Assembly: GCF_041248615.1 (NCBI RefSeq)
Contig: NZ_CP158426.1
Source: Escherichia coli
GTDB taxonomy: Bacteria > Pseudomonadota > Gammaproteobacteria > Enterobacterales > Enterobacteriaceae
Reading direction: 5' to 3' (one strand)
DNA length: 64,000 nucleotides
Shown here: positions 34,677 to 45,195 of the stretch, piece by piece
Numbering within the stretch: the first letter of the stretch is position 1
Layout of the letters: the number at the start of each line of letters is the position of its first letter
The notes under the pieces: generated by a model
What the model saw: the letters and a program-made list of their open reading frames with translations, nothing else
The model's database searches: none
Told to the model about the DNA's origin: nothing
Program-made: the position numbers and the translations under genes

Positions 34677-36368
34677 ATGAAAACGCTGCTGATTATTGAC
34701 GCTAATCTCGGTCAGGCACGCGCCTATATGGCGAAGACCCTGCTGGGCGCGGCGGCGCGAAAAGCAAAACTGGAAATCATCGACAATCCGAACGACGCTG
34801 AAATGGCGATTGTTCTCGGTGATTCCATCCCGAACGACAGCGCGCTGAACGGTAAAAATGTCTGGCTGGGCGATATTTCCCGGGCAGTTGCGCACCCTGA
34901 GCTGTTCCTGAGTGAAGCCAAAGGCCATGCGAAACCTTACACTGCGCCGGTCGCTGCGGCAGCACCGGTTGCCGCCAGCGGTCCGAAACGCGTAGTTGCG
35001 GTGACTGCTTGCCCGACTGGCGTAGCACACACCTTTATGGCGGCTGAAGCCATTGAAACCGAAGCGAAAAAACGTGGCTGGTGGGTGAAAGTTGAAACCC
35101 GTGGTTCTGTTGGCGCGGGTAATGCAATCACCCCTGAAGAAGTAGACGCAGCGGATCTGGTGATTGTGGCGGCAGATATTGAAGTGGATCTGGCGAAATT
35201 TGCTGGTAAACCGATGTATCGCACCTCTACCGGTCTGGCGCTGAAGAAAACCGCGCAGGAACTGGATAAAGCGGTTGCTGAAGCAACGCCGTATGAACCG
35301 GCGGGCAAAGCTCAAACAGCGACCACTGAAGGTAAGAAAGAGGGTGCAGGCGCTTACCGTCACTTGCTGACGGGCGTCTCTTACATGCTGCCGATGGTCG
35401 TTGCAGGTGGTCTGTGTATCGCGCTTTCTTTTGCTTTTGGTATCGAAGCGTTTAAAGAGCCGGGTACGTTGGCAGCGGCGCTGATGCAGATTGGTGGTGG
35501 TTCAGCCTTTGCGCTGATGGTGCCGGTACTGGCAGGTTATATTGCCTTCTCCATTGCCGATCGTCCGGGTCTCACGCCGGGTCTGATTGGCGGTATGCTG
35601 GCGGTCAGCACTGGTTCTGGCTTCATTGGCGGTATTATTGCGGGCTTCCTGGCTGGTTACATTGCGAAGTTAATCAGTACGCAATTGAAACTGCCACAGA
35701 GTATGGAGGCGCTGAAACCGATTCTGATCATTCCGCTAATTTCCAGTCTGGTGGTCGGTCTGGCGATGATCTACCTGATCGGTAAACCGGTTGCTGGCAT
35801 TCTCGAAGGGTTGACTCACTGGCTGCAGACCATGGGGACTGCGAATGCGGTTCTGCTGGGGGCGATCCTCGGTGGCATGATGTGTACTGACATGGGCGGT
35901 CCGGTAAACAAAGCAGCGTACGCGTTCGGTGTGGGTCTGCTGAGTACTCAAACCTATGGCCCGATGGCGGCGATTATGGCGGCAGGTATGGTGCCACCGC
36001 TGGCAATGGGCCTGGCAACAATGGTGGCGCGTCGCAAATTCGACAAAGCGCAGCAGGAAGGGGGCAAAGCCGCTCTGGTATTGGGACTGTGCTTCATTTC
36101 GGAAGGTGCAATTCCGTTTGCTGCTCGTGATCCGATGCGTGTGCTGCCGTGCTGTATCGTGGGTGGGGCGCTGACTGGCGCAATCTCAATGGCGATTGGT
36201 GCGAAACTGATGGCACCGCACGGTGGTCTGTTTGTTCTGCTGATCCCTGGCGCGATTACGCCGGTATTGGGTTACCTGGTAGCCATTATTGCCGGTACGC
36301 TGGTGGCGGGTTTGGCCTATGCCTTCCTGAAACGTCCGGAAGTGGACGCAGTTGCGAAAGCAGCGTAA
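34677..36368 (+). CDS. fruA: Fructose PTS EIIB'BC component FruA
   Basis: 563-aa ORF. Confidence 0.94.
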   Translation: MKTLLIIDANLGQARAYMAKTLLGAAARKAKLEIIDNPNDAEMAIVLGDSIPNDSALNGKNVWLGDISRAVAHPELFLSEAKGHAKPYTAPVAAAAPVAASGPKRVVAVTACPTGVAHTFMAAEAIETEAKKRGWWVKVETRGSVGAGNAITPEEVDAADLVIVAADIEVDLAKFAGKPMYRTSTGLALKKTAQELDKAVAEATPYEPAGKAQTATTEGKKEGAGAYRHLLTGVSYMLPMVVAGGLCIALSFAFGIEAFKEPGTLAAALMQIGGGSAFALMVPVLAGYIAFSIADRPGLTPGLIGGMLAVSTGSGFIGGIIAGFLAGYIAKLISTQLKLPQSMEALKPILIIPLISSLVVGLAMIYLIGKPVAGILEGLTHWLQTMGTANAVLLGAILGGMMCTDMGGPVNKAAYAFGVGLLSTQTYGPMAAIMAAGMVPPLAMGLATMVARRKFDKAQQEGGKAALVLGLCFISEGAIPFAARDPMRVLPCCIVGGALTGAISMAIGAKLMAPHGGLFVLLIPGAITPVLGYLVAIIAGTLVAGLAYAFLKRPEVDAVAKAA

Positions 36369-36378
36369 TAAAAGGTGT

Positions 36379-36409
36379 GTTGCAGGGCAGAAATTTTCTG
36401 CCCTGCAAC
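36379..36409 (+). terminator. Perfect 14-bp hairpin after fruA (probable terminator)
   Basis: GTTGCAGGGCAGAAATTTTCTGCCCTGCAAC, weak U-tract. Confidence 0.6.
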
Positions 36410-36524
36410 ATTTGATGCGCGCAAAGAGAATGACCGGTTTGTGAATGTAATTTTATGAATTTAAATGGTTTTATCTTTTAGTGGAAACCTGAAACTTTCA
36501 TCAAACACTAAGGTTATTTCCTCA

Positions 36525-36553
36525 AGGGCAGATTAATTTCTGCCCTTTTTTAT
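36525..36553 (+). terminator. Second intrinsic terminator in fruA-psuK spacer
   Basis: AGGGCAGATTAATTTCTGCCCTTTTTTATT. Confidence 0.7.
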
Positions 36554-36791
36554 TGTTCCTGTTCTGTGCATCCCGTCACAAATTCTCCGTTTTTATAATT
36601 CAGGCATTTAATCGCGTTTTGTGAGCCTGCTCAAATCTGCCCATTTTGCCTCTCTGGCGGTAATTTACTTTACGTAAAACATGCATACTATGAGCACATG
36701 TTTAAATATGAACACATGTTTAAACCATCTTTGCAGTATCTATATTCTTGTGGATTGACAGGATTGGTAATTTTTTACCAGAGGACGTGCT

Positions 36792-37733
36792 ATGCGCGAA
36801 AAGGATTATGTCGTAATTATAGGTTCGGCGAATATTGATGTCGCCGGATATTCACATGAATCATTAAATTATGCGGATTCAAATCCAGGTAAAATAAAAT
36901 TTACGCCTGGTGGAGTAGGGCGCAATATTGCACAAAACCTGGCGTTGCTGGGGAATAAAGCCTGGCTACTGAGCGCAGTAGGAAGTGATTTTTATGGTCA
37001 ATCGTTGCTAACGCAAACAAATCAATCTGGTGTTTATGTCGATAAATGCCTGATTGTGCCGGGAGAAAATACGTCGAGCTATTTATCATTACTCGATAAT
37101 ACCGGTGAAATGCTGGTTGCTATAAATGACATGAATATTAGCAACGCTATTACAGCTGAATATCTCGCACAGCACCGTGAATTTATTCAGAGGGCAAAGG
37201 TCATTGTCGCAGACTGTAATATCAGTGAAGAGGCACTGGCATGGATTCTGGATAATGCTGCCAACGTACCCGTATTTGTCGATCCGGTTTCAGCGTGGAA
37301 ATGTGTCAAAGTGCGCGACCGTCTAAATCAGATCCACACTCTCAAGCCAAACCGCCTTGAAGCGGAAACCCTGAGTGGGATTGCGCTGTCAGGGCGTGAA
37401 GATGTGGCAAAAGTTGCTGCCTGGTTCCATCAACATGGCCTGAACCGACTGGTATTGAGCATGGGCGGCGACGGCGTTTATTACAGTGATATCAGCGGTG
37501 AAAGTGGTTGGTCTGCGCCGATCAAAACCAATGTCATTAATGTTACCGGAGCGGGCGATGCCATGATGGCGGGACTTGCTTCGTGTTGGGTAGACGGAAT
37601 GCCGTTTGCCGAATCTGTTCGTTTCGCACAGGGATGTTCGTCAATGGCGCTCTCCTGTGAATACACCAATAACCCCGATTTATCGATTGCCAACGTTATA
37701 TCGTTAGTGGAGAACGCAGAATGTCTGAATTAA
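36792..37733 (+). CDS. psuK: Pseudouridine kinase PsuK (YeiC; pfkB family)
   Basis: 313-aa ORF. Confidence 0.92.
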   Translation: MREKDYVVIIGSANIDVAGYSHESLNYADSNPGKIKFTPGGVGRNIAQNLALLGNKAWLLSAVGSDFYGQSLLTQTNQSGVYVDKCLIVPGENTSSYLSLLDNTGEMLVAINDMNISNAITAEYLAQHREFIQRAKVIVADCNISEEALAWILDNAANVPVFVDPVSAWKCVKVRDRLNQIHTLKPNRLEAETLSGIALSGREDVAKVAAWFHQHGLNRLVLSMGGDGVYYSDISGESGWSAPIKTNVINVTGAGDAMMAGLASCWVDGMPFAESVRFAQGCSSMALSCEYTNNPDLSIANVISLVENAECLN

Positions 37734-38659
37734 AAATTTCCCCTGAATTATTACAAATTTCCCCGGAAGTGCAGGACGCTTTAAAAAACAAAAAACCGAT
37801 CGTGGCGCTGGAATCGACCATTATTTCTCACGGGATGCCGTTCCCACAAAATGCCCAGACCGCAATTGAAGTTGAAGAAACTATTCGTAAACAGGGCGCT
37901 GTACCTGCCACTATCGCCATTATTGGCGGCGTGATGAAAGTGGGTTTAAGCAAAGAAGAAATTGAATTGCTGGGTCGTGAAGGGCATAACGTGACCAAAG
38001 TTAGTCGTCGCGATTTACCTTTTGTTGTTGCCGCAGGGAAAAATGGCGCAACCACCGTTGCTTCAACGATGATTATTGCGGCGATTGCCGGAATTAAAGT
38101 ATTTGCCACTGGGGGAATTGGTGGAGTGCATCGCGGGGCGGAACATACCTTCGATATTTCTGCCGATTTGCAAGAGCTGGCAAATACTAATGTCACCGTT
38201 GTTTGTGCCGGGGCGAAATCTATTCTCGATTTAGGATTAACCACTGAGTATTTAGAAACTTTCGGTGTACCGCTAATTGGCTATCAGACCAAAGCGCTGC
38301 CTGCGTTTTTCTGCCGCACCAGCCCGTTTGACGTCAGCATTCGTCTCGACAGCGCCAGCGAAATTGCCCGTGCAATGGCGGTGAAATGGCAAAGCGGGCT
38401 GAACGGTGGCCTGGTGGTGGCAAATCCGATCCCGGAACAGTTTGCGATGCCGGAGGAATCTATCAATGCAGCCATAGATCAAGCCGTTGCCGAAGCCGAA
38501 GAGCAGGGCGTTATTGGTAAAGAAAGCACACCGTTCCTGCTGGCTCGTGTTGCTGAACTGACTGGCGGTGACAGCCTGAAATCCAACATCCAACTGGTGT
38601 TCAACAACGCCATTCTGGCGAGCGAAATTGCCAAAGAATACCAGCGTCTCGCGGGTTAA
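37721..38659 (+). CDS. psuG: Pseudouridine-5'-phosphate glycosidase PsuG (YeiN)
   Basis: 312-aa ORF; 13-nt overlap with psuK. Confidence 0.92.
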   Translation: MSELKISPELLQISPEVQDALKNKKPIVALESTIISHGMPFPQNAQTAIEVEETIRKQGAVPATIAIIGGVMKVGLSKEEIELLGREGHNVTKVSRRDLPFVVAAGKNGATTVASTMIIAAIAGIKVFATGGIGGVHRGAEHTFDISADLQELANTNVTVVCAGAKSILDLGLTTEYLETFGVPLIGYQTKALPAFFCRTSPFDVSIRLDSASEIARAMAVKWQSGLNGGLVVANPIPEQFAMPEESINAAIDQAVAEAEEQGVIGKESTPFLLARVAELTGGDSLKSNIQLVFNNAILASEIAKEYQRLAG

Positions 38660-38752
38660 TTTCTGACGGGCAGAAAGCCGTCGCCCGTACTGATCATACA
38701 TACCAAAACCTGGCGCTGACGCCGGGTTTACTGGCATGAAGGGAAAATCATT

Positions 38753-40003
38753 ATGGATATAATGAGAAGTGTTGTGGGGATGGTGGTGTTACTGGCAATA
38801 GCATTTCTGTTGTCAGTGAATAAAAAGAGCATCAGTTTGCGCACGGTTGGAGCCGCGCTGCTGCTACAAATCGCCATTGGCGGCATCATGCTCTATTTTC
38901 CACCAGGAAAATGGGCGGTAGAGCAGGCGGCATTAGGCGTTCATAAAGTGATGTCTTACAGTGATGCCGGTAGCGCCTTTATTTTTGGTTCATTGGTCGG
39001 GCCGAAAATGGATGTCCTGTTTGATGGCGCGGGCTTTATCTTCGCCTTTCGCGTACTCCCGGCGATTATCTTCGTCACTGCGCTCATCAGCCTGCTGTAC
39101 TACATTGGCGTGATGGGGCTGCTAATCCGCATTCTTGGCAGTATTTTTCAGAAAGCCCTCAACATCAGCAAAATCGAATCTTTTGTTGCGGTTACCACTA
39201 TTTTCCTCGGGCAAAATGAGATCCCGGCGATCGTAAAACCGTTTATCGATCGCATGAATCGCAACGAGCTATTTACGGCAATTTGTAGCGGGATGGCGTC
39301 CATTGCCGGTTCGATGATGATTGGTTATGCCGGAATGGGCGTACCAATTGACTACCTGTTAGCGGCATCGCTGATGGCGATCCCTGGTGGTATTTTGTTT
39401 GCACGTATTCTTAGCCCGGCCACCGAGCCTTCGCAGGTCACATTTGAAAATCTGTCGTTCAGCGAAACGCCGCCAAAAAGCTTTATCGAAGCGGCGGCGA
39501 GCGGTGCGATGACCGGGCTCAAAATCGCCGCTGGTGTAGCGACGGTGGTAATGGCGTTTGTCGCAATTATTGCGCTGATCAACGGCATTATCGGCGGAAT
39601 TGGCGGCTGGTTTGGTTTCGCCAATGCCTCTCTGGAAAGTATTTTTGGCTATGTGCTGGCACCGCTGGCGTGGATCATGGGTGTGGACTGGAGTGATGCC
39701 AACCTGGCGGGTAGCCTGATTGGGCAGAAACTGGCGATTAACGAATTCGTCGCTTACCTGAGTTTCTCCCCATACCTGCAAACGGGCGGCACGCTGGAAG
39801 CGAAAACCATTGCGATTATCTCCTTTGCGCTTTGTGGTTTTGCTAACTTTGGTTCTATCGGTGTTGTCGTTGGGGCATTTTCGGCTATTTCGCCAAAACG
39901 TGCTCCGGAAATCGCTCAGCTTGGTTTAAGGGCGCTGGCAGCAGCAACGCTTTCCAACCTGATGAGCGCGACCATTGCCGGGTTCTTTATTGGTTTAGCT
40001 TGA
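38753..40003 (+). CDS. psuT: NupC-family nucleoside transporter PsuT (YeiM)
   Basis: 416-aa polytopic ORF. Confidence 0.92.
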   Translation: MDIMRSVVGMVVLLAIAFLLSVNKKSISLRTVGAALLLQIAIGGIMLYFPPGKWAVEQAALGVHKVMSYSDAGSAFIFGSLVGPKMDVLFDGAGFIFAFRVLPAIIFVTALISLLYYIGVMGLLIRILGSIFQKALNISKIESFVAVTTIFLGQNEIPAIVKPFIDRMNRNELFTAICSGMASIAGSMMIGYAGMGVPIDYLLAASLMAIPGGILFARILSPATEPSQVTFENLSFSETPPKSFIEAAASGAMTGLKIAAGVATVVMAFVAIIALINGIIGGIGGWFGFANASLESIFGYVLAPLAWIMGVDWSDANLAGSLIGQKLAINEFVAYLSFSPYLQTGGTLEAKTIAIISFALCGFANFGSIGVVVGAFSAISPKRAPEIAQLGLRALAAATLSNLMSATIAGFFIGLA

Positions 40004-40010
40004 GTGTCAT

Positions 40011-40050
40011 TGCCGGATGTACGCGCTTATTAAGCGTCACATCCGGCAAT
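40011..40050. repeat. REP element
   Basis: TGCCGGATGTACGCGCTTATTAAGCGTCACATCCGGCAAT. Confidence 0.8.
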
Positions 40051-40071
40051 CGCGCTATTGCAGATTATTTT

Positions 40072-40731
40072 TTACTGCATCATCCCGGAGAATTTATTCT
40101 CCGGGTCCATCTCCAGCGCCAGTCCTGACAACTGCTTTCTGTTTTTAATTAGATATCCTTTCTTGCTTTTAATTAATAAACCGTCGTGAATGAATTGCGC
40201 GAGAACATATAAAAGATGTCGATAAGAAACGCCTAAATACTCTGCCGCTTGCGTATGCTTTTCGTGATAAAGATCACCTTCTTGTGAGAGTAATATAAAA
40301 GCTGCCAGGCGATTCACTAACGGAAATGATTGATTCTGAGTTAAAGAAACAATATTGCGATAATTTTTATGGCTTAAACTAACGCAGAGTTTTCGTAAAA
40401 ATAGTGTGTCGTTTAATAACAGCGGGCGGTAATGTTTCATAGGGAGCGCAAGACACCAACACTCTTCAATAGCCTGTACCGCACGCGGTTCATGGTCTTT
40501 ATCTATTAACTCAATCTCACCAATAAAACAGGGGGCGGCAAAGAAATCGATCAGCGACACGCGACCATTAGCTAGCGTGGCGTAAAGCCTGGCGCGGCCT
40601 CGCGTCAGGTAAAACAGCCAGGACGGCTGTTGCCCTTCCTGCACAATGTAGTCACGCGCTAAAAAATGAAACAACCGCGTATCGGCTGAAACATCCGTTG
40701 AAAAGCAATCCTTAAACGCGGATTCACTCAT
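40072..40731 (-). CDS. yeiL: CRP/FNR-family transcriptional regulator YeiL
   Basis: 219 aa from ATG at 40731 ([10 protein letters not shown]...); ORF extends 13 codons upstream. Confidence 0.88.
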
Positions 40732-40899
40732 CAATTGCTGCTTAAGATCATTATTGTGGATTTCTTTCACGATGTTTATCCGCTATGAGATTTCTCATAT
40801 TTAGCATACGTACGCTGTTGTTAAGATTCAATCATCGGCCCGGTCGAATTTTCTTTGCTGTAGAAAAAATAACGCAACTGGAAACAGAGGAAATAAACA

Positions 40900-41841
40900 A
40901 TGGAAAAGAGAAAAATTATTCTGGATTGTGATCCGGGTCATGATGATGCTATTGCCATAATGATGGCTGCGAAACATCCGGCGATTGATTTATTAGGTAT
41001 CACTATTGTGGCGGGTAATCAGACGCTTGATAAAACATTAATTAATGGCCTGAATGTTTGCCAGAAACTGGAGATTAATGTTCCGGTTTATGCGGGGATG
41101 CCGCAGCCAATTATGCGTAAACAAATCGTTGCCGATAATATTCACGGAGAAACCGGACTGGATGGCTCGGTATTCGAGCCACTGACCTGTAAAGCTGAAA
41201 GCACCCATGCGGTGAAATACATCATCGATACTCTGATGGCAAGCGATGGCGATATCACTCTGGTACCGGTTGGTCCGCTTTCAAACATCGCGGTGGCAAT
41301 GCGGATGCAGCCTGCAATTCTGCCGAAAATCCGTGAAATAGTGCTGATGGGCGGCGCTTACGGTACAGGTAACTTCACGCCGTCTGCCGAGTTCAACATC
41401 TTTGCCGACCCGGAAGCCGCACGCGTGGTGTTCACCTCCGGTGTTCCGTTGGTGATGATGGGCCTCGATCTCACCAACCAGACTGTTTGCACCCCGGACG
41501 TGATTGCTCGGATGGAAAGGGCAGGCGGCCCCGCCGGAGAGCTGTTCAGCGACATCATGAATTTCACTCTAAAAACGCAGTTCGAAAACTACGGCCTGGC
41601 TGGCGGCCCGGTGCATGACGCCACCTGCATCGGTTATCTGATTAACCCTGATGGCATTAAAACCCAGGAGATGTACGTCGAAGTGGACGTCAACAGTGGC
41701 CCTTGCTATGGGCGTACTGTCTGCGACGAGCTGGGCGTTCTTGGCAAGCCCGCTAATACCAAAGTCGGCATCACTATTGATACCGACTGGTTCTGGGGAT
41801 TAGTCGAAGAGTGCGTGCGCGGCTACATCAAAACCCATTAA
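40900..41841 (+). CDS. rihB: Pyrimidine-specific ribonucleoside hydrolase RihB
   Basis: 313 aa; N-terminal DCDPGHDD motif. Confidence 0.93.
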
Positions 41842-41940
41842 GTGTTGATAACAAGCCGGGTCAGTATCGCAAGATGCAGGCCCGGCTATTTCTGATGGGC
41901 AGAAAGCCGTCGCCCAAAATGGCATGAAGAGATAATAACT

Positions 41941-43191
41941 ATGGATGTCATGAGAAGTGTTCTGGGAATGGTGGTACTGCTGGCAATTGCATTTTTACTG
42001 TCAGTAAACAAGAAGAAGATCAGCCTGCGTACTGTCGGTGCGGCGCTGGTATTACAGGTCGTGATTGGCGGGATTATGCTTTGGTTACCGCCAGGGCGTT
42101 GGGTCGCAGAAAAAGTCGCTTTTGGCGTCCATAAAGTGATGGCGTACAGCGATGCAGGTAGCGCTTTTATCTTCGGTTCGCTGGTCGGGCCGAAAATGGA
42201 CACCTTATTTGATGGCGCAGGATTTATCTTTGGCTTCAGGGTATTACCGGCAATTATCTTCGTTACAGCACTGGTGAGTATTCTCTACTACATCGGTGTG
42301 ATGGGGATCTTAATTCGCATTCTCGGCGGTATATTCCAGAAAGCATTGAATATCAGCAAGATTGAGTCATTCGTCGCGGTCACTACCATTTTCCTCGGGC
42401 AAAACGAAATTCCGGCAATCGTCAAACCCTTTATCGATCGTCTGAATCGCAATGAATTATTTACAGCGATTTGTAGCGGGATGGCCTCGATTGCTGGTTC
42501 GACAATGATTGGTTACGCCGCACTGGGCGTGCCTGTGGAATATCTGCTGGCGGCATCGTTAATGGCGATCCCCGGCGGGATCTTGTTTGCCCGCCTGTTA
42601 AGCCCGGCTACGGAATCTTCGCAGGTTTCCTTTAATAACCTCTCTTTCACCGAAACACCGCCAAAAAGCATTATTGAAGCCGCCGCTACAGGGGCAATGA
42701 CCGGACTGAAAATCGCAGCAGGTGTGGCGACAGTGGTGATGGCATTTGTTGCAATAATTGCGTTGATTAACGGTATTATCGGCGGCGTTGGCGGCTGGTT
42801 TGGTTTTGAACATGCCTCGCTGGAGTCCATTTTAGGTTACCTGTTGGCCCCACTGGCGTGGGTGATGGGGGTTGACTGGAGTGATGCGAATCTTGCCGGA
42901 AGTTTGATTGGACAGAAGCTGGCAATAAATGAATTTGTCGCTTACCTCAATTTCTCACCTTATCTGCAAACAGCTGGCACTCTCGATGCTAAAACCGTGG
43001 CGATTATTTCCTTCGCGTTGTGCGGTTTCGCTAACTTTGGTTCTATCGGGGTGGTGGTTGGCGCATTTTCTGCGGTTGCGCCACACCGTGCACCGGAAAT
43101 CGCCCAGCTTGGTTTACGCGCGCTGGCGGCGGCGACACTTTCTAACCTGATGAGTGCCACCATTGCAGGATTCTTTATTGGCTTAGCGTAG
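41941..43191 (+). CDS. nupX: NupC-family nucleoside transporter NupX (paralog of psuT)
   Basis: 416-aa ORF, roughly 80% identical by eye to the psuT product. Confidence 0.92.
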   Translation: MDVMRSVLGMVVLLAIAFLLSVNKKKISLRTVGAALVLQVVIGGIMLWLPPGRWVAEKVAFGVHKVMAYSDAGSAFIFGSLVGPKMDTLFDGAGFIFGFRVLPAIIFVTALVSILYYIGVMGILIRILGGIFQKALNISKIESFVAVTTIFLGQNEIPAIVKPFIDRLNRNELFTAICSGMASIAGSTMIGYAALGVPVEYLLAASLMAIPGGILFARLLSPATESSQVSFNNLSFTETPPKSIIEAAATGAMTGLKIAAGVATVVMAFVAIIALINGIIGGVGGWFGFEHASLESILGYLLAPLAWVMGVDWSDANLAGSLIGQKLAINEFVAYLNFSPYLQTAGTLDAKTVAIISFALCGFANFGSIGVVVGAFSAVAPHRAPEIAQLGLRALAAATLSNLMSATIAGFFIGLA

Positions 43192-43203
43192 TGCGCGAGT
43201 TAT

Positions 43204-43241
43204 GAGCCGGATAAGATGTAGTCAAGCGTCGAATCCGGCAA
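43204..43241. repeat. REP-like palindromic element
   Basis: GAGCCGGATAAGATGTAGTCAAGCGTCGAATCCGGCAA. Confidence 0.7.
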
Positions 43242-43246
43242 CATTG

Positions 43247-44335
43247 TTACACCATCGGCACTAATGAAAGCGCGTTATCGGCAGACAGGGTAGGGTTGTT
43301 TAAGCTGCCGCTGGCGCGTGAAATTGCCGCGCAGGCCATCGCAAAACGGGCGCTGTCACGGAAATTGTTTCCCTCCAGAAAGCTATATACCAGGCCCGCC
43401 ATAAAACCATCGTCAGCACCAAAACTGTCTACTGTCGTATGCGCTGGCGCTGTCAGCAAAAATTGCTCTCCATTCTTTTCGCTGCAATAAACTGACTCAT
43501 CGGGCAAATAAACAAACAGTTGCTGAACGCCTTGCTGATGCAACGCATTCACTGCGGTATTACGGTCAGCATCGCTGGTGATCGCCTGTCCCCATAAAAT
43601 TTCCAGCTCCGGTAAAGTGGGTTTCAGGGTGTGAATATGCGCCAGCCAGTGTTTGATTTTGCCCGCTTTGAATTCTGAAACGGTATCGACAAACACCGGG
43701 ATTTCATCAGCGAGGGTAAAGACCCACTCCAGCGCCTCGGCTGTCAGGTTGCAATCAGCCAGTACCACGCCCGCATGACGAAGTAAATCGCGCGACCCGT
43801 TCAGTAGTTGCGGTGTCAACTGATCCAGCAGATGGGTATCGTTAATCGCCAGCACGATTTGATCGTCTCGATTGGCAATTGCCAGATACGTCGATGTGCT
43901 TTGACCATGTAAACGAACGCAGCCGGAGACATTCACGCCGGCGCGGCGCGTTTCTTCCAGGAGCATTTCGCCATAAAAGTCATCGCCAATCACTGAAAGC
44001 AAATGGACGTCGCGGCCTAACAGCGCCAGATTGTGGGCGATATTGCGTCCAACGCCGCCTGCCGAGCAATGAATTGTACCGGGATGAGAAGCCGCTTGCG
44101 GGTAACGGATATCCGCCATCCCGCGAATATCCATATTGATTGTCCCCACCACTACGCAGTATTCCTGCTCGGTGAGAATGTAACCTTTGCCTTTAATCCG
44201 GCCTTTGCGCATTAAATCCATAATATGCGCCGCAACGCGCGAACGGCTGATTTGCAGCATATCCGCAATTTCGTTCTGCTGAATCAGCGGGTTACGCCGT
44301 AAAATTGCAAGGATCTCCTTCTCCCGGTTGTTCAT
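43247..44335 (-). CDS. yeiI: HTH + pfkB-family sugar/nucleoside kinase-like protein YeiI
   Basis: 362 aa; N-terminal ~60-aa HTH-like segment, then pfkB domain homologous to PsuK (GGVGRNIA, HTLKP). Confidence 0.9.
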   Translation of the reverse strand: MNNREKEILAILRRNPLIQQNEIADMLQISRSRVAAHIMDLMRKGRIKGKGYILTEQEYCVVVGTINMDIRGMADIRYPQAASHPGTIHCSAGGVGRNIAHNLALLGRDVHLLSVIGDDFYGEMLLEETRRAGVNVSGCVRLHGQSTSTYLAIANRDDQIVLAINDTHLLDQLTPQLLNGSRDLLRHAGVVLADCNLTAEALEWVFTLADEIPVFVDTVSEFKAGKIKHWLAHIHTLKPTLPELEILWGQAITSDADRNTAVNALHQQGVQQLFVYLPDESVYCSEKNGEQFLLTAPAHTTVDSFGADDGFMAGLVYSFLEGNNFRDSARFAMACAAISRASGSLNNPTLSADNALSLVPMV

Positions 44336-44337
44336 CT

Positions 44338-45195
44338 TCAGGCTACCGCTTTTTCAGTTTGTTGCGCTTTCAGCCAGGCGATCTCTTCTGCCCAGATATC
44401 CGGGTTGATGGTTTCAAGGATCAGCGGAATGCCGTCGAAACGGTCGTCCTGCATGATCCAGCGGAACGCATCATGACCGATATTGCCTTCACCGAGGCTA
44501 TGATGGCGGTCAACGCGGCTGCCAAAGGTGCTTTTCGCATCGTTAAGGTGCATCCCGCGCAGATACTTAAAGCCGACAATACGGGCAAAATCCGCGAACG
44601 TTTTCTCGCATTCGGCTGGAGTACGCAAATCATACCCGGCAGCAAAAGCATGGCAGGTATCAATGCAGACGCCGACGCGGGATTTATCTTCCACGCCGTC
44701 GATAATCGCCGCGAGATGTTCGAATTTAAACCCTAAGTTACTGCCCTGACCGGCGGTGTTTTCAATCACCGCTGTCACACCTTGAGTTTTATCCAGCGCA
44801 ATGTTGATGGATTCGGCAATACGCGCAAGGCAATCCTCTTCTGAAATCTGCATCAGATGGCTGCCAGGGTGGAAGTTGAGCAAAGAAAGCCCCAGCTGTT
44901 CGCAACGCTGCATTTCATCTATAAACGCATCGCGCGATTTTTCCAGAGCTTCAGCGACCGGATGTCCGAGGTTAATCAGATAACTGTCGTGGGGAAGAAT
45001 TTGCGCCGATGTGTAGTGATATTTTTCACAGGCGGCTTTGAATTCATCGATGGTTTGCGTCGTGAGCGGTGCGGCACGCCACTGACGTTGGTTTTTGGTG
45101 AACAAGGCAAACGCGGTTGCGTCGATTTCAGCGGCGCGAATTGCGGCATTTGCCAGACCGCCAGCAGCACTAACGTGCGCTCCAATGTATTTCAT
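44338..45195 (-). CDS. nfo: Endonuclease IV
   Basis: 285-aa [16 protein letters not shown]... Confidence 0.95.

Follow-up and report, generated by a model that had tools for sequence, protein, structure and literature searches.

The 64-kb window, the whole stretch of DNA that was analysed, carries the E. coli gene order fruA-psuK-psuG-psuT-yeiL-rihB-nupX-yeiI. The two intergenic regions of interest are bounded as follows.

38659: end of psuG
38753: start codon (ATG) of psuT
41841: end of rihB
41941: start codon (ATG) of nupX

PsuT and NupX are CNT-family nucleoside transporters that share 88.7% protein identity, and their coding sequences are 78.6% identical overall and 52% identical at third codon positions. 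The psuT and nupX operons both handle pyrimidine ribonucleosides (PMC11241209). The RefSeq annotation holds no RNA or regulatory feature in the psuG-psuT or rihB-nupX intergenic region, and a promoter and terminator scan called no site at either leader. The two genes are weakly expressed, and their leaders have no entries in the eLife 2021 3'-end map or in SMRT-Cappable-seq; the literature searched contained nothing on the regulation of psuT or nupX.

The neighborhood of the two operons varies among genomes. The yeiI gene (43247-44335, minus strand) encodes a PfkB sugar kinase with a fused N-terminal HTH domain, and PsuK belongs to the same Pfam family. In many genera yeiI lies tail-to-tail with the transporter gene (after psuT or nupX in loci L086, L087, L093-L096, L098, and L099), and it is missing at some loci that carry the hairpin described below; its product is a candidate nucleoside-sensing regulator. 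REP-like palindromes of the GCCGGATG...CATCCGGC type lie directly 3' of psuT (40004-40071) and nupX (43192-43246) and give weak, sub-threshold naRNA4 matches in Rfam. In E. coli 13C1065T (L084), IS1 stands in place of most of psuG through the 5' part of rihB, and in E. coli PMV-1 (L082), nupX is reduced to a short pseudogene fragment.

Two exact matches to TTTCTGAYGGGCAGAAAGCCGTCGCCC occur in the window, a C form at 38660-38686 in the psuT leader and a T form at 41889-41915 in the nupX leader, and no further match was found in the 64 kb at ≤3 mismatches, where 0 were expected (100 shuffles). The first-pass annotation was right to place this motif in both leaders, with its nupX coordinates (41887..41912) 2–3 nt off. 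Over these 27 nt the two leaders are identical at 26 positions, compared with 52% identity at third codon positions, and no 27-nt window in the comparison of the psuT and nupX coding sequences reaches 26/27. The similarity of the motif is far above the neutral level. A survey of 5,426 complete E. coli genomes gave a median of two occurrences per genome, in the psuT and nupX leaders, so the motif is not a dispersed repeat. The leaders align at the motif and again from GGCATGAAG to the start codon, and the psuT leader has about 46 additional bases between these two blocks. The statement that both leaders end with GGCATGAAG holds in the window (38733-38741 and 41921-41929) but not beyond it, as K-12 nupX reads GACATGAAG and several genera lack GGCATGAAG.

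Leaders were taken upstream of PsuT and NupX orthologs, giving 26 distinct hairpin-region sequences in a gap-free alignment (A2) from E. albertii, Citrobacter (4 leaders), Klebsiella michiganensis, K. spallanzanii, Enterobacter, Leclercia, Kluyvera, Buttiauxella, Superficieibacter, Entomohabitans, and several E. coli strains; the sample comes from some 10 genera in a single family and over-represents E. coli. The E. coli sequence allows three mutually exclusive helices, here termed H1, H2 (the fold of the earlier reading), and H3. H3 (ACGGGC/GCCCGT with an 11-nt loop) is 94.9% paired across the sample, with changes on both sides in 3/6 pairs (A-U/G-C, C-G/U-A, and G-C/A-U), 0/500 shuffles reaching the observed value, and slid controls at 34–53%. 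H2 (GACGG/CCGTC) is 76.9% paired, with both-side changes in 0/5 pairs and 490/500 shuffles reaching the observed value. H1 (TTTCTG/CAGAAA) is 66.7% paired, with both-side changes in 3/6 pairs, 0/500 shuffles, and slid controls up to 55%; it was rejected as not conserved across genera. RNAalifold recovered H3 independently in both leader types, and H3 is the MFE or a near-MFE structure in 22 of the 26 leaders, with an energy of -8 to -12 kcal/mol in most species. It is weakened in the psuT leaders of PMV-1 and E. albertii (-5.6 kcal/mol) and in nupX of E. coli 13C1065T, where the 3' arm reads GCCAAA. In a metagenomic psuT leader that lies beside a transposase gene (L097, 2405-2500), G-to-A changes create A·C mismatches in H3 and in the second hairpin, HP2, which may reflect relaxed selection or an assembly error.

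H2 as the functional hairpin, with its 8-nt loop, is highly improbable. GACGG (38665-38669) is indeed complementary to CCGTC (38678-38682), the C/T difference between the leaders does yield a G-U pair in that fold, and all three polymorphisms within E. coli preserve its pairing through G·U. For the isolated 27-mer, H2 is also the MFE structure, and it is the centroid of the longer E. coli fold; H3 is not chosen when the longer psuT leader is folded as a single sequence. However, the H2 stem fails the test of conservation in orthologous leaders, as its values above show. In Citrobacter, Klebsiella, Enterobacter, Kluyvera, and Leclercia the stem is broken: outside Escherichia only 2–4 of its five pairs can form, at an energy near or above 0. 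Its 3' arm falls within the H3 loop, and H2 excludes H3, the covarying helix. In E. coli the two overlapping helices are nearly iso-energetic (-8.5 kcal/mol for H2 and -10.1 kcal/mol for H3), and the comparative data alone choose between them. Because H3 is the conserved structure, the C/T difference is not a retained wobble but half of a C-G to U-A compensatory exchange, the partner having changed from G to A. A fold read from a single genome can thus be wrong although the motif is right. The proposal of an RNA element survives as a selected RNA stem-loop in both leaders, with the GACGG/CCGTC drawing replaced. The view that the hairpin lacks a U-tract and is no terminator was confirmed, since H3 is followed by ACTGATCA and the terminator scan was negative. 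Among other pairings considered, an outward extension of H3 by two pairs is unsupported, and of the inner loop pairs the G·U of loop positions 2 and 10 is the sole consistent one, the others being ambiguous. An H-type pseudoknot of H1 and H2 was rejected: the loops that would connect the helices are too short, and neither helix shows conservation.

The hairpin and its flank comprise the following features.

38660-38665, plus strand: 5' flank TTTCTG, common to both E. coli leaders, which can pair with CAGAAA (38671-38676) in the alternative H1
38666-38671, plus strand: 5' arm of H3, ACGGGC, in the psuT leader (covariation, RNAalifold)
38672-38682, plus strand: H3 loop AGAAAGCCGTC, 11 nt in 26/26 distinct leaders (alignment A2)
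38683-38688, plus strand: 3' arm of H3, GCCCGT, in the psuT leader (covariation, RNAalifold)
41895-41917, plus strand: nupX copy of H3, ATGGGC-AGAAAGCCGTC-GCCCAA, with five pairs (41896-41900 with 41912-41916), the MFE structure

The H3 stem is a G+C-rich helix of 6 bp with the consensus RYRGGY/RCCYRY. A covariance model scores the psuT leader (38664-38690) at 39.9 bits on the plus strand versus 8.7 bits on the minus strand, and the nupX leader (41893-41919) at 37 bits. The second pair is U-A in nupX and C-G in psuT. The E. coli nupX leader is polymorphic in length: the window (41889-41940) and K-12 carry the shorter form, in which the outer H3 pair is A·A, and strain SCPM-O-B-8794 (L001, 6138-6201) has 12 additional bases, GCCCATAACGGGATCAGACCTGACATG, that restore the sixth pair. 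The full 6-bp form ATGGGC...GCCCAT is found in this strain and in Buttiauxella. Within the loop, G at positions 2, 6, and 9 is nearly invariant and T at position 10 is invariant; positions 2 and 10 are G-U in 24 leaders and A-U in 2. In nupX of Enterobacter and Leclercia, the loop has become self-complementary and gives a 12-bp hairpin of about -20 kcal/mol, which suggests that hairpin stability outweighs loop identity. The TTTCTG flank is specific to Escherichia in the leader alignment across genera. The psuT and nupX leaders of E. coli share the loop AGAAAGCCGTC and the flank TTTCTGA, both Escherichia-specific, and nupX orthologs of other genera have the loop AGTRAGYGGTC and different flanks. 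A short gene-conversion patch between the two E. coli leaders therefore probably accounts for some of their 26/27 identity. Judged from the alignments, what is deeply conserved is the stem, along with the length of the loop and a few of its bases.

The pattern of change in H3 points to RNA on the sense strand. The paralogous leaders read ACGGGC/GCCCGT versus ATGGGC/GCCCAT in E. coli, and ACGGGC/GCCCGT versus ACAGGC/GCCTGT in E. hormaechei; paralogs in one genome thus differ by compensatory changes, and therefore pairing matters and base identity does not. RNA is favored over DNA, since a single DNA-binding protein would not tolerate such differences between paralogs and a helix would. At the five inner pairs in the 26 leaders, every non-Watson-Crick combination is G·U or U·G on the plus strand, except one G·A (13C1065T), and no A·C was found there on that strand. 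Since G·U on the plus strand would be A·C on the other strand, the sense-strand RNA is the favored molecule. H3 lies 23 to 64 nt from the ATG and 6 to about 60 nt from the upstream stop codon, and these variable distances are evidence against promoter geometry or direct Shine-Dalgarno occlusion. On this comparative evidence, H3 is very probably a selected sense-strand RNA hairpin.

Around H3, the leaders contain the following features.

38689-38705, plus strand: CA-rich, G-poor single-stranded linker, with ATCA-N3-ATACC conserved in long-form leaders (alignments)
38706-38729, plus strand: second hairpin HP2, AAACCTGGCG-CTGA-CGCCGGGTTT (RNAalifold and single-sequence fold)
38733-38752, plus strand: psuT GGCATGAAG (38733-38741), Shine-Dalgarno AAGGGA (38739-38744), and spacer to the ATG
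41854-41887, plus strand: hairpin AGCCGGGTC...GGCCCGGCT 3' of the rihB stop codon, adjoining the nupX motif copy upstream (fold and sequence)
41921-41940, plus strand: nupX GGCATGAAG (41921-41929), Shine-Dalgarno AAGAGA, and spacer to the ATG

The long form of the leader, of roughly 93 nt, consists of H3, the CA-rich linker, HP2, and the Shine-Dalgarno region, and occurs in every psuT leader as well as in nupX of K. spallanzanii (long-form loci L003-L005, L086, L092, L095, and L098). Long leaders are 65–82% identical between genera, even between paralogs, and 4-fold synonymous sites are 37–46% identical. Purifying selection acts on the leader as a whole. Most nupX leaders derive from the long form by deletion, having lost HP2 and kept H3; HP2 is absent from the E. 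coli nupX leader. According to RNAalifold, HP2 has 9 pairs, nearly all of them kept and with one-sided changes only, and 7 of them are G/C-rich. It is terminator-like yet followed by only 3–4 U (3' sequence TTTACTGG, 4 U in 8). The CA-rich linker (ATCA-N3-ATACC-AAAA) could be a candidate loading site for an sRNA, Hfq, or Rho, perhaps a rut site or the target of a GcvB-type sRNA. The psuT start codon lies within a small A-U-rich hairpin, CATTAT-GGAT-ATAATG (38747-38762), which is predicted for every long-form leader; its conservation is uninformative because it overlaps conserved codons.

H3 is an undescribed leader hairpin of ordinary structure whose distribution within Enterobacteriaceae is narrow. 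When presented with a held-out metagenomic leader, the covariance model recognized it at 27.3 bits, and no further copies were found in the window and about 640 kb of related loci; a 15.9-bit match at 6955-6974 was rejected as lying within IS1-like sequence. A cmscan of 36000-44500 against Rfam 15 (E ≤ 10) gave no match at either leader. More distant CNT genes lack H3, including psuT of Serratia and Hafnia (73% protein identity). At four loci from Serratia, Hafnia, and Klebsiella sp. BIGb0407 (L006-L009), there is an unrelated, longer conserved hairpin, CCTGAAAGG...CCTTTCAGG, about 60–110 nt upstream of the transporter ATG and preceded by a conserved box, TTAAGTTTTA(T/C)CC. This hairpin may be an analogous leader element with its own promoter.

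Several resemblances and alternative readings of the leaders were rejected. An 8-codon upstream ORF that begins at the GGCATGAAG ATG is either missing or frame-shifted in Citrobacter (L004) and K. michiganensis, and an open frame running beyond the psuG stop codon has a register relative to H3 that differs among genera. The TTTCT flank could serve as an anti-Shine-Dalgarno sequence in Escherichia only. Resemblance to the lambda boxB hairpin, the IRE, the tRNA T-arm, and RAT was rejected by sequence, as were DeoR, CytR, PurR, and CRP sites. For the RfaH ops/JUMPstart element (GGCGGTAGnnTG, non-template strand), the best likenesses are AGCGGTCGCCCG in other genera and AGCCGTCGCCCG in E. coli, neither of which has A at position 7 or T at position 11, and there was no JUMPstart match in Rfam.

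Our best explanation for these observations, which we hold tentatively and at a little less than even confidence, is a sense-strand mRNA hairpin within a conserved leader that would act in cis after transcription and set the output of the transporter. The leader travels with the cistron of a CNT-family transporter (psuT or nupX), downstream of the gene for an enzyme (psuG or rihB) in the same operon. The H3 module would belong to the transporter cistron, because it was duplicated together with that cistron. It would act post-transcriptionally as a static structural module, with no switch, and may tune the amount of transporter relative to the upstream enzymes. The hairpin would most likely serve as a boundary or protective structure in the processing and decay of the intercistronic mRNA, or else insulate the translation-initiation region, perhaps together with a bound factor. 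A stability or processing mechanism specifically is possible but rather doubtful. What was found is a stem-loop kept as RNA structure between cistrons, as in an operon-internal stabilizer or processing hairpin. Against a stability role, a hairpin of -8 to -12 kcal/mol would be a weak barrier to exonucleases, and no conserved RNase E-type site was seen next to H3 when the aligned leaders were inspected. The psuT leaders of E. coli and Citrobacter do have an RNase E RN↓WUU site 5' of H3, but it was rejected for lack of conservation elsewhere. We favor a structural role, given that some lineages have strengthened the stem and discarded loop identity, and that the position of the hairpin is flexible.

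The main rival to a structural role is a protein or sRNA partner, because the loop length is fixed and loop bases are conserved. H3, the CA-rich linker, or both would then be the operator for a trans-acting protein or sRNA that represses or activates psuT and nupX translation or antitermination according to pyrimidine nucleoside status, a reading we consider unlikely but serious. The constant 11-nt loop with its nearly invariant G, G, G, and U suggests specific recognition rather than a passive hairpin. The loop G·U wobble kept in 24/26 leaders, the conserved single-stranded linker, and the shared substrates of the two operons point the same way. However, no candidate gene for an RNA-binding protein is linked, yeiL and yeiI are each missing at some hairpin loci, nupX of Enterobacter and Leclercia lost most loop identities and kept the hairpin, and the lack of any further covariance-model copy in the window or the fetched loci gives no sign of a regulon. 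An inverted repeat with regulator genes nearby could also be read as a palindromic DNA operator, ACGGGC-N11-GCCCGT, for a dimeric factor such as YeiL or the HTH-kinase YeiI. This is very unlikely: the half-sites are not conserved but covary, and they are unlike in the two leaders of a single cell, the intermediates are of the G·T type on one strand only, start-codon spacing varies by 40 nt, no promoter-like site is nearby, and neither regulator gene is consistently linked.

The remaining alternatives concern the leader as a whole or its origin. In an attenuator, which we regard as decidedly unlikely, HP2 would be a weak intrinsic terminator that limits read-through from psuG to psuT, with H3 as an accessory. 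HP2 does have a G+C-rich stem followed by UUU(U) in the psuT leaders of five genera and in one nupX leader, yet the 3–4 U of this tract pair with an A-tract conserved upstream, HP2 went uncalled in the terminator scan, most nupX leaders lack HP2 and keep H3, and no antiterminator pairing that would compete with it was found. Transporter genes are the commonest context of riboswitches, and a structured leader of ~93 nt that lies upstream of transporters and is conserved far above the neutral level would suit a riboswitch-like sensor of a pyrimidine nucleoside or catabolite. Such a sensor is nonetheless very improbable. RNAalifold gives static hairpins only, and neither RNAalifold in both leader types nor inspection of the alignments revealed a conserved alternative pairing of H3 with HP2 or the Shine-Dalgarno sequence. 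In addition, the leader is small, short nupX leaders do without half of it, the loop is remodeled in some lineages, and the element has no Rfam match at E ≤ 10 and a narrow distribution. It is similarly quite improbable that the whole ~93-nt leader is a new Enterobacteriaceae regulatory RNA that senses a pyrimidine nucleoside signal and gates PsuT and NupX synthesis; the signal would be pseudouridine, uridine, or a catabolite, sensed directly or via a dedicated RNA-binding factor. Finally, the shared motif could be a functionless relic of duplication and recent gene conversion, as the Escherichia-specific loop and TTTCTGA flank in both leaders fit a short conversion patch. Conversion cannot account for compensatory changes across ten genera, or for 65–82% leader identity where synonymous sites are saturated; the covariation and the leader identity have largely refuted this reading already, and we give it almost no weight. 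Attenuator, riboswitch, DNA operator, and relic are all less likely than a structural role or a specific partner.

As a structural hairpin of the mRNA, H3 can be compared with several known systems. The REP stem-loops between malE and malF are intercistronic hairpins that set differential expression within an operon, and H3 is likewise a stem-loop without a U-tract between the cistrons of a soluble enzyme and a membrane transporter. However, REP and BIME elements have hundreds of extragenic copies per genome, and H3, with only two, is not a REP. Its stem is also far shorter (6 bp, about -10 kcal/mol), its loop length and several loop bases are conserved, and it was duplicated along with the downstream gene. 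Stabilizer hairpins of the ompA 5' UTR type must sit at the very 5' end of the RNA. H3 resembles them as a small leader hairpin that precedes the ribosome-binding site, with a spacing to the start codon that varies, but no start or cleavage site is known or predicted just upstream of it. With intrinsic terminators H3 shares a G+C-rich hairpin (4–5 G-C pairs in the stem), and the missing U-tract sets it apart. Protein-binding operator hairpins in mRNA leaders include the ribosomal-protein operators and the BglG/SacY RAT sites. H3 likewise combines a covarying stem with a fixed loop size and a few fixed loop bases, but it has no sequence resemblance to RAT or Rfam families and no known partner, and some lineages have lost its loop identity.

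Even in E. coli, the best-annotated bacterium, H3 is absent from Rfam, from the RefSeq features, and from the literature searched. The psuKGT and rihB-nupX operons are poorly understood salvage routes for pseudouridine and pyrimidine nucleosides. With its six base pairs and natural compensatory variants, H3 offers a precise, mutable handle on a putative post-transcriptional control of the PsuT and NupX transporters.
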